4,325 nucleotides of DNA from a virus (lineage: Duplodnaviria; Heunggongvirae; Uroviricota; Caudoviricetes): IMG/VR virus record IMGVR_UViG_3300018478_000173; one strand, written 5' to 3'. Shown in pieces: positions 351-3,680 of the stretch (position 1 is the first letter of the stretch; every line of letters begins with the position of its first letter). The notes beneath the pieces were generated by a model. It was not told the origin of the DNA. It searched no databases and worked only from the letters and a program-made list of their open reading frames with translations. The position numbers and the translations under genes are program-made.

Positions 351-569
351 AATTCGGTTGATGGACTATTGTCTGATCGATGGAAGTCTTGTAAAAACGA
401 GCCAGCATAGTGAATCCCCCTGTGCGGAGGGGCGTCTGACATGGTCTCCATAGCGATGGTCACAATACGCAGATTCAGTAGTCAGGCTGAATCTACCGGG
501 AGGCACCCGGCACTATGCTGCTTATGGTGTATACATAGCGATCGGCCCCTCTCCGGAGGGGCTTTTTTT
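351..569 (+). ncRNA. Unit 1 candidate structured small RNA (~219 nt): 5' leader, closing helix 404-412/511-519, hairpin 417-432 (CCCCT-GTGCGG-AGGGG), divergent core 433-495, hairpin 496-510 (CCGGG-AGGCA-CCCGG), tail, terminator
   Basis: Closing helix is 9 perfect base pairs (AGCATAGTG with CACTATGCT) and carries an A-T pair where the other units have G-C. The core contains a strong local hairpin AGATTCAG-N8-CTGAATCT (471-494). No conserved reading frame. Confidence 0.45.
545..569 (+). terminator. Intrinsic terminator of unit 1: 7-bp GC stem (GCCCCTC/GAGGGGC), loop TCCG, then T7
   Basis: Perfect hairpin 545-562 followed by TTTTTTT 563-569. Confidence 0.8.
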
Positions 570-595
570 GTGCGGGAAAAGGCTGTGTTGTTAAG

Positions 596-604
596 TGTTA
601 AATT
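596..604 (+). promoter_or_regulatory. Candidate extended -10 promoter (TGtTAAATT) for unit 2; hexamer is the same as I recall for the lambda pR' -10 (TAAATT)
   Basis: TG 596-597, hexamer 599-604; predicted start near A611 in the conserved CCTCACA context; no canonical -35, as is common for extended -10 promoters. Confidence 0.3.
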
Positions 605-610
605 CCTCAC

Positions 611-838
611 AGTTCAGATGGTTGATGCTTGCCTGTCTGAGGGGGAGTTGTTAAAAAAGTTCTGCATGGTGAATCCCCCTGTGCGGAGGGGCGACTGGTG
701 TGATTTGCATCTTTTCTGTTGTAGGCAATGCAAACGCGGGTTCAGGGACACCAGACTGGACTCACCGGGAGGCACCCGGCACCATGTTCATGATGATACA
801 GATACGCAGTGTCAGCCCCTCTCCTGAGGGGCTTTTTT
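611..838 (+). ncRNA. Unit 2 candidate structured small RNA (~228 nt): closing helix 664-671/780-787, hairpin 676-691, divergent core 692-764, hairpin 765-779, terminator 815-838
   Basis: Closing helix GCATGGTG with CACCATGT (one G-U pair). Core contains nested hairpins (CTGGTGT 697-703 with ACACCAG 749-755; TTTGCAT 706-712 with ATGCAAA 730-736). Confidence 0.45.
815..838 (+). terminator. Intrinsic terminator of unit 2: same 7-bp stem, loop TCCT, then T6
   Basis: Hairpin 815-832 followed by TTTTTT 833-838; the only change from unit 1 is in the loop. Confidence 0.8.
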
Positions 839-865
839 ATGCAGGAAAAACGCTGTGTTGTGAAA

Positions 866-874
866 TGTTAAATT
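866..874 (+). promoter_or_regulatory. Candidate extended -10 promoter (TGtTAAATT) for unit 3
   Basis: TG 866-867, hexamer TAAATT 869-874; same position in the unit as in units 2 and 4. Confidence 0.3.
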
Positions 875-880
875 CCTCAC

Positions 881-1098
881 AGTTCAGATTGTTGATGCTT
901 GCCTGTCTTACGGGGAGTTGTTAAAAAAGTTCTGCATGGTGAATCCCCCTGAGCGGAGGGGCATATCAGCGCAGGTGTTTCTACTCTATCCTTTCTGTGC
1001 GGGTTCAGGTGCTGATACTGAACTCACCGGGAGGCACCCGGCATCATGCATATGGTTAACAGACACGTAGCGAAGCCCCTCTCCGGAGGGGCTTTTTT
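881..1098 (+). ncRNA. Unit 3 candidate structured small RNA (~218 nt): closing helix 933-941/1042-1050, hairpin 946-961 (loop GAGCGG), divergent core 962-1026, hairpin 1027-1041, terminator 1075-1098
   Basis: Closing helix TGCATGGTG with CATCATGCA (9 bp including one G-U). Core has the stem TATCAGC...GCTGATA. Confidence 0.45.
1075..1098 (+). terminator. Intrinsic terminator of unit 3: same 7-bp stem, loop TCCG, then T6
   Basis: Hairpin 1075-1092 followed by TTTTTT 1093-1098. Confidence 0.8.
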
Positions 1099-1115
1099 AT
1101 GCAGGGAAAAGGCTG

Positions 1116-1124
1116 TGTTGTGAA
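1116..1124 (+). promoter_or_regulatory. Candidate extended -10 promoter (TGtTAAATT) for unit 4
   Basis: TG 1116-1117, hexamer TAAATT 1119-1124; same position in the unit as in units 2 and 3. Confidence 0.3.
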
Positions 1125-1130
1125 ATGTTA

Positions 1131-1349
1131 AATTCCTCACAATTCATGAGGTTGATGATTGTCTGATTGATGAGGAGTTTGTTAAAAAAAACGGGCATGG
1201 TGAATCCCCCTGTGCGGAGGGGTGATATCGTATCATTTCCTGTGTGGCCGACTGATATCACGGACATTTGTTCACCGGGAGGCACCCGGCACCATGCAGT
1301 ATACAGAGATTAGGCATACATCCAGGCTCCTCATCGCAGGAGCCTTTTT
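1131..1349 (+). ncRNA. Unit 4 candidate structured small RNA (~219 nt): closing helix 1195-1202/1290-1297, hairpin 1207-1222, shortened core 1223-1274, hairpin 1275-1289, non-homologous terminator 1325-1349
   Basis: Closing helix GCATGGTG with CACCATGC (8 perfect bp). The 5' conserved block carries small insertions relative to units 2 and 3. Core has the stem TGATATC...GATATCA. Confidence 0.4.
1325..1349 (+). terminator. Intrinsic terminator of unit 4: different sequence, same architecture (GGCTCCT-CATCGC-AGGAGCC then T5)
   Basis: 7-bp stem 1325-1331 with 1338-1344, T-run 1345-1349. Replaces the GCCCCTC hairpin used by units 1-3. Confidence 0.7.
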
Positions 1350-1355
1350 ACATGT

Positions 1356-1581: not shown

Positions 1582-3546
1582 ATGGCATTTAAACACTACG
1601 ATGTGGTCAGGGCGGCATCGCCGTCAGACCTTGCTGAACGACTGACACAAAAACTGAAGGAGGGCTGGCAGCCATTTGGCAGTCCGGTGGCCATCACGCC
1701 TTATACCCTGATGCAGGCCATTGCGGCGGAAGGTGATGTCACCACACCAGTGGCGGTGACCGGTAATGAGGGTAAGGCGGTGGCTGTCAGTGCCACCAGC
1801 GACCCGGAGTATTACTTTGTTGTGGTTCTGGCAGGGCAGTCAAATGGCATGTCGTATGGTGAAGGTCTTCCGCTGCCGGAGACATATGACCGTCCGGACC
1901 CGCGTATTAAGCAACTGGCGCGCCGCAGTACGGTGACACCGGGCGGTGTCGCCTGTAAATATAACGACATCATTCCGGCGGACCATTGTCTGCATGATGT
2001 GCAGGACATGAGCCGTCTTAACCATCCGAAAGCGGAACTGTCAAAGGGGCAGTACGGAACCGTGGGGCAGGGGCTGCATATTGCCAAAAAACTGCTGCCG
2101 TTTATACCGGCGAATGCGGGCATTCTGCTGGTTCCGTGCTGTCGTGGTGGTTCAGCGTTCACCACCGGAGCTGATGGCACATACAGTGACGCTGGCGGTG
2201 CCTCGGAGAATTCAGCGCGCTGGGGTGTGGACAAGCCGCTGTATAAGGACCTTATCGGTCGAACAAAAGCAGCACTGAAGAAGAACCCGAAAAATGTGCT
2301 GTTTGCCGTGGTGTGGATGCAGGGGGAATTTGATTTTGGCGGTACGCCGGCAAATCACGCAGCACAGTTTGGTGCGCTGGTTGATAAATTCCGTGCAGAC
2401 CTGACGGATATGGCAGGTCAGTGCGTTGGTGGCTCTGCTGGCGGTGTTCCCTGGATATGCGGGGACACGACGTATTTCTGGAAGCAGAAGAACGAATCCA
2501 CGTACCAGACGGTGTACGGCAGCTATAAAAACAAAACGGAAAAGAATATCCATTTCGTACCGTTCATGACGGATGAGAACGGGGTGAATGTGCCGACGAA
2601 CAAACCGGAAGAAGACCCGGACATTCCGGGTATCGGGTATTACGGTTCGAAATGGCGTGACAGCTCAGCCACCTGGACGTCACAGGACAGGGCGAGCCAT
2701 TTCAGCACCTGGGCACGCCGGGGGATTATTTCCGACCGTCTGGCAACGGCGATTCTGGTGCACGCCGGGAGAACCGCTGAATTCATTACCGGAAAACAGC
2801 CTGATATGGTGAGGCCCACCGTACCTTCCGGTGAAGGTCCGGAGAGAGAGGCGGAAGCCCCGGCCAGTAAGCGTACCCTGATGAGTCTGCTGGCATCCGG
2901 CGAAGACCTGGCATCACAGGGCTGGCGCTATTATCACAAACCGGCGGGCGGAGACAGTGTTAACAAAAACATTGCTGAAGCGGTGGTCAGTGATGCGGGG
3001 GCTACGGGAGGTAAGGCTCTGCAACTGAACAAACCGGAAAACCACATCTGGTTTCTGGAGCATGATGCAGCCGGACAGGGGGCGGAGTTACTGAAGAAGG
3101 GCGGACGTGTGAGCGTACGGTTTAAGTTGCCGGGTTCACTGGTGCCGAATCAGTTTGCCCTGGGCATTTACTGGCAGTTGTCGTCCCTGCCGGAGGGGGT
3201 GATGCTGTCAGGAGAAGGTAACGATATGCTGATGTCTTTCTTCCTGCAGACGGATACGACGAACCTGAACGCGATGCATCACAGGAAGCCGAATGCGAAG
3301 CTGGATACATTCGGGGTCTTTGATAACGGATGGCACACGCTGGCTTTTGAGTTTGCCGGAAACAACAGCATTCAGGTGACACCAGTACTGGATGAGAAAC
3401 GGGGAGCGGCGTTCACACTGGTGAAGTCACCGGCATCGGGGGCGGTGGACAAACTGCAACTGACCGATATATCAAAATCGGCGACGTATACGCTGCTGAT
3501 TGACAGCATTGCGGTGGAAGTGAACAGCACAGACACTGCGGCATGA
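1582..3546 (+). CDS. nanS-p: Prophage-encoded sialate O-acetylesterase (NanS-p-like), 654 aa: N-terminal DUF1737-like domain, SGNH/SASA esterase domain with the GQSN motif, and a long C-terminal domain
   Basis: Intact 1965-nt ORF. GGAGGA at 1573-1578 just upstream of ATG 1582. GQSN at residues 85-88 (nt 1834-1845), characteristic of the sialate O-acetylesterase branch of SGNH hydrolases. The N-terminus MAFKHYDVVRAASPSDLAERLTQKLKEGWQPFGSPVAITPYTLMQAIAAEG matches, from memory, the DUF1737 N-terminal domain of NanS-p proteins of EHEC lambdoid prophages. Function is from recalled homology, not a search. Confidence 0.9.
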   Translation: MAFKHYDVVRAASPSDLAERLTQKLKEGWQPFGSPVAITPYTLMQAIAAEGDVTTPVAVTGNEGKAVAVSATSDPEYYFVVVLAGQSNGMSYGEGLPLPETYDRPDPRIKQLARRSTVTPGGVACKYNDIIPADHCLHDVQDMSRLNHPKAELSKGQYGTVGQGLHIAKKLLPFIPANAGILLVPCCRGGSAFTTGADGTYSDAGGASENSARWGVDKPLYKDLIGRTKAALKKNPKNVLFAVVWMQGEFDFGGTPANHAAQFGALVDKFRADLTDMAGQCVGGSAGGVPWICGDTTYFWKQKNESTYQTVYGSYKNKTEKNIHFVPFMTDENGVNVPTNKPEEDPDIPGIGYYGSKWRDSSATWTSQDRASHFSTWARRGIISDRLATAILVHAGRTAEFITGKQPDMVRPTVPSGEGPEREAEAPASKRTLMSLLASGEDLASQGWRYYHKPAGGDSVNKNIAEAVVSDAGATGGKALQLNKPENHIWFLEHDAAGQGAELLKKGGRVSVRFKLPGSLVPNQFALGIYWQLSSLPEGVMLSGEGNDMLMSFFLQTDTTNLNAMHHRKPNAKLDTFGVFDNGWHTLAFEFAGNNSIQVTPVLDEKRGAAFTLVKSPASGAVDKLQLTDISKSATYTLLIDSIAVEVNSTDTAA

Positions 3547-3583
3547 TAAAAAAAGCCGCCAGTTACCGGAATGGACTGGCGGT
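3547..3583 (-). terminator. Strong hairpin right after the nanS-p stop, oriented as an intrinsic terminator for the minus strand (A7 on + before the stem, no T-run after it)
   Basis: A-run 3548-3554; stem GCCGCCAGT (3555-3563) with ACTGGCGGT (3575-3583), 9 bp including one G-U; 11-nt loop. It may still slow plus-strand transcription after nanS-p, but it lacks the U-tract of a classic + terminator. Confidence 0.4.
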
Positions 3584-3651
3584 GGTAATACCCATGGAGA
3601 AATATAAAGGAACGATACTTTCGTGCTCTGTTTTTTTAAATGAAAACAGTT

Positions 3652-3667
3652 CTTATTGTCAACAATA
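3652..3667. promoter_or_regulatory. Inverted repeat TTATTG-N4-CAATAA upstream of the small TM ORF; overlaps a perfect TTGACA hexamer on the minus strand (+ coordinates 3656-3661)
   Basis: Read directly; 6-bp arms with a 4-bp centre. Could be an operator or a divergent promoter element. No binding protein can be assigned. Confidence 0.25.
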
Positions 3668-3680
3668 ACGGTAAGAAATT

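Follow-up and report, generated by a model that had tools for sequence, protein, structure and literature searches.

Does a Shine-Dalgarno-like GGAGG that recurs four times with a downstream ATG mark the starts of four small genes, or is it kept for the sake of the RNA in which it lies? The question is raised by a stretch of 4,325 nucleotides (nt), here called the window, from a tailed-phage record (IMG/VR IMGVR_UViG_3300018478_000173; Caudoviricetes), in which the motif is repeated between positions 498 and 1296. The answer favored here, with a probability of roughly 0.88, is that each GGAGG-N11-ATG motif belongs to the fold of a prophage small RNA (sRNA), STnc100, of which the window holds four tandem copies, each transcribed on its own. 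The repeat of Shine-Dalgarno sequence and ATG should thus not be annotated as four small genes.

The motif itself is real. The 20-nt sequence GGGAGGCACCCGGCAYYATG has four exact matches in the window, all on the plus strand (498–517, 767–786, 1029–1048 and 1277–1296), and none in 200 dinucleotide-preserving shuffles. The ATGs lie at 515–517, 784–786, 1046–1048 and 1294–1296; the original prediction, which was made from the letters alone, had set the first and last of these one base too low (514 and 1293) and had counted 10 nt between GGAGG and ATG, where the spacer is 11 nt long (e.g., 504–514). The distances from ATG to ATG are 269, 262 and 248 nt. As none of these is divisible by 3, the motif ATGs never share one frame. 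Tandem Repeats Finder detects the underlying repeat, its period being about 270 nt, with 81% matches.

The identity of the repeat follows from the Rfam covariance model RF02076 (STnc100, “Gammaproteobacterial sRNA STnc100”; 206 model positions, gathering score 47 bits). Four matches were found, each running end to end over model positions 1–206 of 206 without truncation: 376–571 (119.5 bits), 635–844 (140.8), 906–1104 (141.7) and 1166–1355 (141.3). In the RF02076 consensus, a closing helix, P1, is formed by GCAUGGUG pairing with CACCAUGC and encloses P2 (CCCCU/AGGGG), a variable stretch, P3 (GGGUUCAG/CUGAACUC) and P4 (CCGGG-AGGCA-CCCGG), with an intrinsic terminator on the 3′ side. In each unit of the window, the 5′ folded domain is about 110 nt long and closed by an 8-bp P1; P1 and the hairpins CCCCU/AGGGG and CCGGG/CCCGG form in the predicted folds and are supported by covariation. 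A terminator scan marked sites at 544–563, 814–833, 1078–1091 and 1324–1345, each with a T run, and the window has the lambdoid prophage location expected of STnc100. The parts of the four units are given below; for units 2 to 4, the P1 strands and P4 were placed from RF02076 and the folds, as was the unit 4 RNA as a whole.

405–570, plus strand: unit 1 sRNA, inferred transcript of about 166 nt; its fold shows P1, P2, P3 and P4.
405–412, plus strand: unit 1, 5′ strand of P1, GCAUAGUG, pairing with 511–518.
496–510, plus strand: unit 1, P4, CCGGG-AGGCA-CCCGG, with GGAGG at 499–503 (probability of being unpaired 0.00, 0.01, 1.0, 1.0 and 1.0).
511–518, plus strand: unit 1, 3′ strand of P1, CACUAUGC, with ATG at 515–517 (probability of being unpaired 0.00 for A, U and G).
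545–569, plus strand: unit 1, intrinsic terminator.
664–840, plus strand: unit 2 sRNA, about 177 nt; fold z-score −2.57.
664–671, plus strand: unit 2, 5′ strand of P1, GCAUGGUG.
765–779, plus strand: unit 2, P4, with GGAGG at 768–772.
780–787, plus strand: unit 2, 3′ strand of P1, CACCAUGU, with ATG at 784–786.
815–838, plus strand: unit 2, intrinsic terminator.
934–1099, plus strand: unit 3 sRNA, about 166 nt; fold z-score −3.63, with 0 of 200 shuffles folding as well.
934–941, plus strand: unit 3, 5′ strand of P1, GCAUGGUG.
1027–1041, plus strand: unit 3, P4, with GGAGG at 1030–1034.
1042–1049, plus strand: unit 3, 3′ strand of P1, CAUCAUGC, with ATG at 1046–1048 and one G·U pair.
1075–1098, plus strand: unit 3, intrinsic terminator.
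1195–1350, plus strand: unit 4 sRNA, about 156 nt, with a variant core.
1195–1202, plus strand: unit 4, 5′ strand of P1, GCAUGGUG.
1275–1289, plus strand: unit 4, P4, with GGAGG at 1278–1282.
1290–1297, plus strand: unit 4, 3′ strand of P1, CACCAUGC, with ATG at 1294–1296.
1324–1349, plus strand: unit 4, intrinsic terminator.

STnc100 has been described as an Hfq-associated RNA with transcribed copies in enterohemorrhagic Escherichia coli, one of which, STnc100_4, was seen on a Northern blot in strain EDL933 (PMC5331693), and STnc100 RNA has been found in outer-membrane vesicles (PMC12370729). The family includes PasD1 and PasD2, EcOnc13 and EcOnc27. PasD1 and PasD2 of E2348/69, which is an EPEC (enteropathogenic E. 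coli) strain, are 172–173 nt long, were detected by Northern blotting and in Hfq RIL-seq chimeras, and are homologues of EcOnc13 (PMC8550237). A preprint concludes that they share a fold and an ancestor with STnc100 and that genes for Q and an esterase are found close to them (Zhu, Shabalina and Storz, bioRxiv 10.64898/2026.05.13.724894). The object in the window is therefore a set of tandem members of a known, curated sRNA family in the late region of a lambdoid prophage, which makes the finding an ordinary one; the original prediction saw conservation at the RNA level but did not recognize the family. Apart from RF02076, the Rfam families scored at E ≤ 1, including the known ribozymes and riboswitches, gave nothing beyond weak noise: istR, rli32, snoZ30 and, on the minus strand, Esr41 with 25 bits. 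Mimicry of tRNA or tmRNA, considered on account of the T-arm-like GGUGAAUCC, was rejected: ARAGORN found neither in the window, and the covariation pairs GGUG with CACC. IpeX, which holds a similar position in the DLP12 prophage of K-12, was likewise rejected as a family member, with no Rfam match in NC_000913 572000–579000.

ViennaRNA folds of all four units, taken from P1 through the terminator, contain P1 to P4 in every case, with an unpaired probability of 0.00 for the AUG. The placement of the ATG within the closing helix, already proposed from the sequence, is borne out by both the RF02076 alignment and the folds, where it lies in the 3′ strand of P1. The GGAGG had been assigned to a hairpin loop, which is half right: it comprises the last two stem bases of P4 and the first three bases of the loop AGGCA, so that A-G-G alone is unpaired in the folds and the first two G residues belong to the CCGGG/CCCGG stem.

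Relatives of the units show what is conserved about the ATG. A first set was anchored on the 5′ hairpin alone (GTGAATCCCCCTGNGCGGAGGGG), leaving the 3′ motif free to vary; 26 loci from species-representative genomes and 120 phage contigs gave 126 unique units. These loci represent at least 14 genera of Enterobacterales, among them Atlantibacter, Pantoea, Superficieibacter, Citrobacter, Klebsiella, Franconibacter and Trabulsiella as well as Phytobacter, Erwinia, Lelliottia, Mangrovibacter, Enterobacter, Rosenbergiella and Escherichia species. A second set was anchored on P4 alone and, pooled with the earlier loci, came to 207 unique units. In the 126 units, the triplet at the ATG position is often ACA, GCA, ACG, GTC or ATC, and the two strands of P1 vary in step: CAUGG/CCAUG, UGUGG/CCACA, UGCGG/CCGCA, CGUGG/CCACG and GAUGG/CCAUC. 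Counted over 78 distinct sequences aligned without gaps, pairing in P1 amounts to 94%, with both-side changes at 5 of its 8 pairs. The pair holding the A of ATG is U-A in 67 sequences, C-G in 5, U-G in 5 and A-U in 1; that holding the T is A-U in 48, G-C in 27 and otherwise in 3; and that holding the G is C-G in 44, U-A in 13, G-C in 3, U-G in 2, A-U in 1 and otherwise in 15. Neither the percentage paired nor the covariation score was matched by any of 500 shuffles, and sliding the 3′ strand by 1–3 columns lowers the pairing to 41–52%.

The same compensation can be seen within the window, where unit 1 has CAUAG/CUAUG and units 2–4 have CAUGG/CCAUG, the G-to-A change in 405–412 being offset by a C-to-U change at 514. 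RNAalifold, applied to 26 diverse sequences including PasD1, independently arrived at all four helices, P1 to P4, and 15 of the 26 pairs show compensatory changes. Across the 207 unique units, ATG occupies its position in 85 (41%), followed by ACA (62), GCA (15) and ACG (11); all 8 P1 pairs form in 126 units, and an AAU junction follows P1 in 199. In one unit, the whole of P1 has been replaced by CAAGCC/GGUUUG. The conserved feature is the helix and not the start codon, the ATG being freely replaced together with matching changes in the 5′ strand, and the “conserved ATG” of the original prediction holds for E. coli-type copies only. G·U pairs in P1, and in the pseudoknot described below, assign the structure to the plus-strand RNA.

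The reading frames behind the ATGs tell the same story. In unit 1, the ATG opens a frame of 7 amino acids (aa), MLLMVYT; in unit 3, one of 25 aa runs through the terminator (1046–1123); and the ATGs of units 2 and 4 stand in frame inside open reading frames (ORFs) at 700–924 and 1222–1404, both of which cross terminators. The earlier description of these frames as unrelated between units, and as either 7 aa long or crossing the terminator, is thus confirmed by the sequence and the ORF list. Among 91 unique 3′ tails of the family, 35 have no ATG, GTG or TTG at the position, and the remainder specify M-stop, MQ-stop, a peptide of 7 aa or frames that extend through the terminator for 19 to more than 35 aa, the terminator itself being read in two frames (...SPSPEGL... 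or ...PLSGGAF/PLRRGFF...). In the three subfamilies with enough variation, nonsynonymous and synonymous variant codons stand at 10:1, 3:1 and 5:1, without a third-position excess; neither a conserved peptide nor a coding substitution pattern was found among the family tails. Nor is the site open to ribosomes in the predicted folds, where forcing the region from GGAGG through AUG+10 open would cost 17–22 kcal/mol by thermodynamic prediction. A start codon conserved among homologues, as a small-protein gene would have, is likewise lacking. The view that the motif is kept for RNA reasons and not for a peptide is therefore supported, because the triplet varies with its matching partner, the peptides are unrelated and opening the site is costly; membership in RF02076 agrees with it.

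Published ribosome profiling of EDL933 covers 11 STnc100 copies, with coverage values from 0 to 3.2, four of them above 1.5 and five at or below 0.24; the sRNAs RyhB, OmrA, CyaR and MicA have ribosome coverage similar to or above that of the high STnc100 copies (PMC5331693). These data neither support a specific peptide nor fully exclude ribosome contact, and the copies are inseparable in them from classic non-coding sRNAs.

Sequences upstream of the units suggest that each is a transcription unit of its own. The upstream regions of the four units and of EPEC PasD1 (TTGACT-N18-TAAAAA) align column for column as TTG(C/T/A)CT, a 17–18-nt spacer and TAAAAA, with the first G of P1 6–7 nt further on; the 5′ end reported for PasD1 falls on that G (PMC8550237 Table S6). 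The promoter-like elements, placed by this alignment, and the variable spacers between P1 and the terminator, considered putative pairing regions by analogy with PasD, are as follows.

369–397, plus strand: unit 1, promoter-like element, −35 TTGTCT (369–374), 17-nt spacer, −10 TAAAAA (392–397); aligned with units 2–4 and PasD1.
629–657, plus strand: unit 2, promoter-like element, −35 TTGCCT (629–634), 17-nt spacer with TGT, −10 TAAAAA (652–657).
899–927, plus strand: unit 3, promoter-like element, −35 TTGCCT (899–904), −10 TAAAAA (922–927).
1159–1188, plus strand: unit 4, promoter-like element, −35 TTGTCT (1159–1164), 18-nt spacer, −10 TAAAAA (1183–1188).
519–543, plus strand: unit 1, variable spacer, putative target-pairing region.
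788–813, plus strand: unit 2, variable spacer, putative seed region.
1050–1073, plus strand: unit 3, variable spacer, putative seed region.
1298–1323, plus strand: unit 4, variable spacer, putative seed region.

Under the proposed mechanism, a TTGNCT-N17/18-TAAAAA promoter would set the start of transcription at the first G of P1 and leave the 5′ end buried in the helix. The folded 5′ domain would serve as a stable scaffold; the target-pairing (seed) region would be, as in PasD, the short variable single strand that separates P1 from the terminator; and the terminator with its U tail would be the Hfq-binding end. Differing in their variable parts, the four copies would in that case be directed at different mRNAs. 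By this analogy, the spacers that we infer to be equivalent to the PasD seed spacer are what had appeared as unrelated reading frames, their divergence being as expected of the seeds of paralogous sRNAs. Since the spacer after the ATG corresponds to the mapped seed of PasD, the four tandem copies are probably differently targeted regulators. A placement of the PasD seed in the variable insert of the core was considered and proved wrong, as the seed lies in the spacer after P1.

The structure of the 5′ domain goes beyond what the family description records. The loop of P3 has its complement in the 5–9 nt after P2, and in units 1 to 3 the two form a predicted pseudoknot.

436–440 with 481–485, plus strand: unit 1, pseudoknot CUGAC/GUCAG, with the loop of P3 (471–479/486–494).
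695–701 with 748–754, plus strand: unit 2, pseudoknot CUGGUGU/ACACCAG, with the loop of P3 (738–745/756–763).
964–970 with 1011–1017, plus strand: unit 3, pseudoknot UAUCAGC/GCUGAUA, with the loop of P3 (1001–1008/1018–1025).

Unit 4 is without it and has instead a nested helix (1222–1229/1254–1261) and a 4-bp P3 (1262–1265/1270–1273). Relatives show many further strand pairs, including ACUGGAUA/UAUCCAGU, AAGCCACA/UGUGGCUU, CCAGUC/GACUGG and UUCCAGAA/UUCUGGAG, and PasD1 makes the same loop contact (AAUGAUC/GAUCAUU, approximately L149 190–196/229–235). At least 6 contiguous pairs form in 57 of 68 unique cores, where the mean longest helix is 6.6 for cognate and 4.6 for swapped strands. When each of 38 distinct loops is represented once, the mean is 6.42, compared with 4.35 (standard deviation 0.19) after permutation, and none of 2000 permutations reaches the observed value. 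P3 itself occurs as 45 distinct strand pairs, whose pairing is 98% and falls to 71% on permutation; in a MAFFT alignment its pairing is 92%, with covariation at each of the 8 pairs. A column-based count of the pseudoknot on that alignment gives only 55% paired, because the register shifts by 1–3 nt between sequences; for this reason, the register-free comparison of own with swapped strands and the permutation test are taken as the evidence. The pseudoknot is absent from the structure line of the RF02076 alignment. A covarying pseudoknot thus goes beyond both the Rfam consensus line and the published RNAalifold models, and is a modest addition to the family description.

P4 behaves differently from the other helices. 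It is almost unchanged in the 126 units found without selecting on it, and in the 78 distinct sequences not selected for P4 neither the loop AGGCA nor the inner G-C pairs vary, in contrast to the free covariation of P1, P3 and the pseudoknot. P2 covaries in the P4-anchored set only (CCCCC/GGGGG, CUUUC/GAAAG, CCCAUC/GAUGGG and CUCACC/GGUGGG), and the second GGAGG, in the 3′ strand of P2, is not conserved (GGUGGGG, GGCGGGG). An invariant GGAGG hairpin amid covarying helices points to a sequence-specific contact, and the near-invariance of P4 (GGGAGGCACCC) most likely reflects such a contact, either tertiary or with a protein; ribosome binding at P4, as a “decoy,” is possible but unsupported. Two specific contacts were tried and rejected: kissing between the loops of P2 and P4 (UGC/GCA), in which the P2 base varies between U and A, the P4 base A42 is invariant and there is no covariation; and two-site binding of the CsrA type through two GGA motifs, the P2 GGA not being conserved. 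As a separate observation, a divergent subfamily (L150, L151, L154, L158, L159, L160 and others) has retained P1 and the AAU junction as well as P3 and the pseudoknot, and its P4 is identical, but it has a different P2 (AAUGCGGCUCAGCGCACGC), which indicates that the family is broader in phages than the exact search with the 5′ hairpin suggests.

The alternative that fares best starts from this hairpin. It holds that the invariant P4 is a site for the 30S subunit, through anti-Shine-Dalgarno pairing, or for an RNA-binding protein, so that the 5′ domain has a second function beside base pairing. The invariance of the AGGCA loop and its closing G-C pairs against the background of covarying P1, P3 and pseudoknot speaks for it, as do the retention of GGAGG in PasD even though P4 is cut there to a 3-bp stem, an elaborate pseudoknotted 5′ fold that is unusual for a simple Hfq sRNA, ribosome footprints on some copies (PMC5331693), and the abundance of PasD, which is independent of Hfq (log2 fold changes of +0.5 and −0.2; PMC8550237 Table S2). 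Set against these points, no direct evidence exists for any partner of P4, only A-G-G within the GGAGG is unpaired, and the lack of conservation of the GGAGG in P2 weakens a two-site model of the CsrA type. Ribosomes are far more abundant than any sRNA, and their titration by P4 is for that reason implausible. On balance, this second function is quite unlikely. In a broader and likewise speculative form, improbable as it stands, the STnc100/PasD 5′ domain would be more than a passive scaffold: its compact, pseudoknotted four-helix fold would carry the GGGAGGCACCC hairpin as a docking site for a protein or the 30S subunit, combining a fixed binding domain with an exchangeable pairing segment. 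If that were true, tandem arrays would be sets of differently addressed copies of one effector.

A dual-function RNA is a less probable alternative still. Here, the GGAGG and ATG of E. coli-type copies would be a real but usually masked ribosome-binding site, and a small peptide would be translated when P1 and P4 open, e.g., after target pairing. The spacing GGAGG-N11-ATG is workable, though long; several EDL933 copies have ribosome coverage of 1.5–3.2 (PMC5331693); and in PasD1, GGAGG-N4-AUG is followed by a hydrophobic ORF of 36 aa. The ATG frame of ATG-bearing tails is also open longer (median at least 35 codons) than the other two frames (4 and 24), a statistic driven by the near-identical copies that dominate the set. 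On the other side, ATG is missing from 59% of the unique family members, with compensatory changes; the peptides, some of them 1–7 aa long, bear no relation to one another, and the terminator is read in different frames; variant codons are nearly all nonsynonymous, with no third-position bias; the predicted opening cost of 17–22 kcal/mol would have to be paid; and no coding sequence is annotated at the array. The profiling, too, gives similar or higher coverage for RyhB, OmrA, CyaR and MicA and 0–0.24 for five other STnc100 copies (PMC5331693). Taken together, these observations make translation of a dedicated peptide very unlikely.

Weakest of all, and barely credible, is a leader or attenuator, vestigial or active, in which read-through into the next unit, the esterase and the lysis genes is governed by a short ORF running from the ATG over the terminator: an intrinsic terminator does follow each ATG by 26–30 nt, three of the four ORFs cross it, and the units lie in the late operon in the orientation of the esterase and holin genes, but the ORF is not conserved, the units in relatives are discrete sRNAs with their own promoters, and a ribosome could hardly load at the ATG before P1 forms, because the pairing strand is transcribed about 100 nt earlier. 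Late-operon terminators of lambdoid phages are read through thanks to Q, and Q is encoded upstream of the array. Of the roles that the original prediction had suggested for the motif, a ribosome-binding decoy and a vestigial leader, neither gained supporting evidence in this analysis.

Some observations nevertheless weigh against the favored reading of the motifs as structural parts of STnc100 copies. A generic promoter scan found no plus-strand promoter at the units; it missed the aligned elements because TAAAAA fails its rule for position 6 of the −10 hexamer. The transcription start, Hfq binding and the position of the seed are carried over from PasD and from the literature on other strains, and apply to the window by analogy. 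With coverage above 1.5 on four of the 11 EDL933 copies, some ribosome association is possible (PMC5331693). Finally, even the distant PasD branch retains GGAGG with an AUG close by, though 4 nt apart, a degree of GGAGG conservation beyond the needs of a 5-bp hairpin.

The window is the late region of a lambdoid prophage, between the antiterminator Q and the sialate esterase and holin genes. Positions 300–1400 have a counterpart of 99.8–99.9% identity in 89 of 5426 complete E. coli genomes, mostly Shiga toxin-producing strains such as O22:H8 and O113:H21. These 89 genomes have the full four-unit array, and parts of 300–1400 are present in 3098. In a genome that matches this part at 99.9%, the order is RusA, antiterminator Q, a methyltransferase, tRNA-Ile, tRNA-Arg, a helix-turn-helix (HTH) protein, the array, a SASA-family esterase, DUF1378, DUF826, holin, lysozyme and terminase; no annotated feature and no RefSeq coding sequence lies under the array in matching genomes. 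Matches to the window were found in 363 phage records, mostly of Stx-converting phages. At 147 loci carrying a unit, the unit is always co-oriented with Q-type, esterase and holin or lysozyme genes; a Q-type gene lies upstream in 49 of them, a holin or lysozyme gene downstream in about 50 or more, and the esterase starts about 400 nt downstream of the unit in 56. In the window, this gene is the following.

1582–3546, plus strand: SASA-family (NanS-p-type) carbohydrate esterase gene (ORF; RefSeq coding sequence L001 10283–12247 in the matching genome).

Further features lie near the array. At 33–82, an exact 25-nt direct repeat, TCTGGAGATTCAGGGGGCCAGTCTA, occurs in two tandem copies in an intergenic region that, in the matching genome, is downstream of the HTH-protein gene. 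On the minus strand at 1362–1384, a strong terminator-like hairpin, AACCGCTCTTCCCAGGAGCGGTT with T8 after it, and the unit 4 terminator are set back to back, an arrangement suggesting that a convergent transcript ends here. A small RNA gene is also probable on the minus strand at 3541–3680, in the interval separating the esterase stop codon from the DUF1378 gene; it shows a promoter-like hexamer (TTGACA), a stretch rich in C/U and a terminator, GCCGCCAGU...ACUGGCGGC and then U7. It holds the same position as PasC/PasA of EPEC, with which it aligns at the ends only, and the match of Esr41 to it is weak (25 bits, E 0.12). The late-region sRNAs of prophages, PasA/PasC, Esr41 and AgvB/AsxR, share the neighborhood of the GGAGG-ATG motif but are unrelated to it in sequence and fold. 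In metagenomic phage contigs (L165 460–980, L179 1813–2333 and L206), family members stand three in tandem, the period being about 253 nt, so that differently “programmed” arrays are not peculiar to this E. coli prophage.

Among the known systems with which the array can be compared, dual-function sRNAs such as SgrS/SgrT and, as claimed, RyhB/RyhP likewise hold a Shine-Dalgarno-like sequence, an AUG and an open frame inside an sRNA. In STnc100, the start codon, frame and peptide are not conserved, and the site is locked in two helices. The lambda “6S” RNA and StxS, leaders transcribed from pR′, are also small terminated RNAs of the late region downstream of Q that are read through when Q acts. 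A pR′ leader would start at the Q-dependent late promoter right after Q, whereas the array lies about 5.5 kb downstream of Q, with the methylase, the tRNAs and other genes between them in the matching genome, and each unit has promoter-like elements of its own. Only in other genera were units seen next to Q: in Atlantibacter and Superficieibacter (L002 3724–4879, L017 788–2626 and L011), one or more lie directly between a Q-type gene and holin, the site of the lambda pR′ leader.

PasD1 is a closer relative. It shares with the window units P1 (CGCAUGG/CCAUGCG), the AAU junction, the pseudoknot, an AUG in the 3′ strand of P1, P3 (GAGUUCUG/CAGAACUU), a single-stranded spacer, a terminator, the aligned promoter and a position near Q and the esterase. 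It differs in scoring 37.7 bits against RF02076, below the threshold of 47, in a shortened P4, where GCG-GGAGG-CGC leads to GGAGG-N4-AUG (4 nt against 11), in a P2 of CCUC-CUUG-GAGG, and in a longer, C/U-rich spacer with a predicted seed, UGUGAG, complementary to a CUCACA motif in targets. The spacers of the window do not contain the PasD spacer; the two have a common fold and belong to different branches. An unannotated, hydrophobic open frame of 36 aa, MRTSLMLFPSIIFLVSSGCAWRGLFFMTCHWQMVIL, runs in PasD1 of E2348/69 from GGAGG-N4-AUG over the seed and terminator (L149 256–366) and probably arises as a side effect of the C/U-rich seed region.

In O157:H7, the STnc100 copy lying downstream of stx2B corresponds to the Hfq-bound EcOnc27/sRNA103, whose overexpression raised fimZ and espA transcripts (PMC12711010); this member adjoining stx2 has also been linked to virulence-gene expression and clinical outcome (PMC12711010). 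It shares with the window units the Rfam family and the place in the late region, downstream of the stx or moron position and upstream of the esterase, and Hfq binding has been reported for it (PMC12711010, PMC12370729). It is a single copy adjoining stx2, whereas the window has four copies and no stx. The family as a whole is widespread in Shiga-toxin and other lambdoid prophages, and the window units are members of it, with the same closing helix, two conserved hairpins, terminator and prophage setting and with about three times the gathering score. The Rfam consensus line has no pseudoknot, and units 1–3 have one in the loop of P3; beyond that consensus, the window carries four differently “programmed” copies head to tail. 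The four-copy array, the pseudoknot and the invariant GGAGG hairpin are thus modest additions to the description of STnc100.

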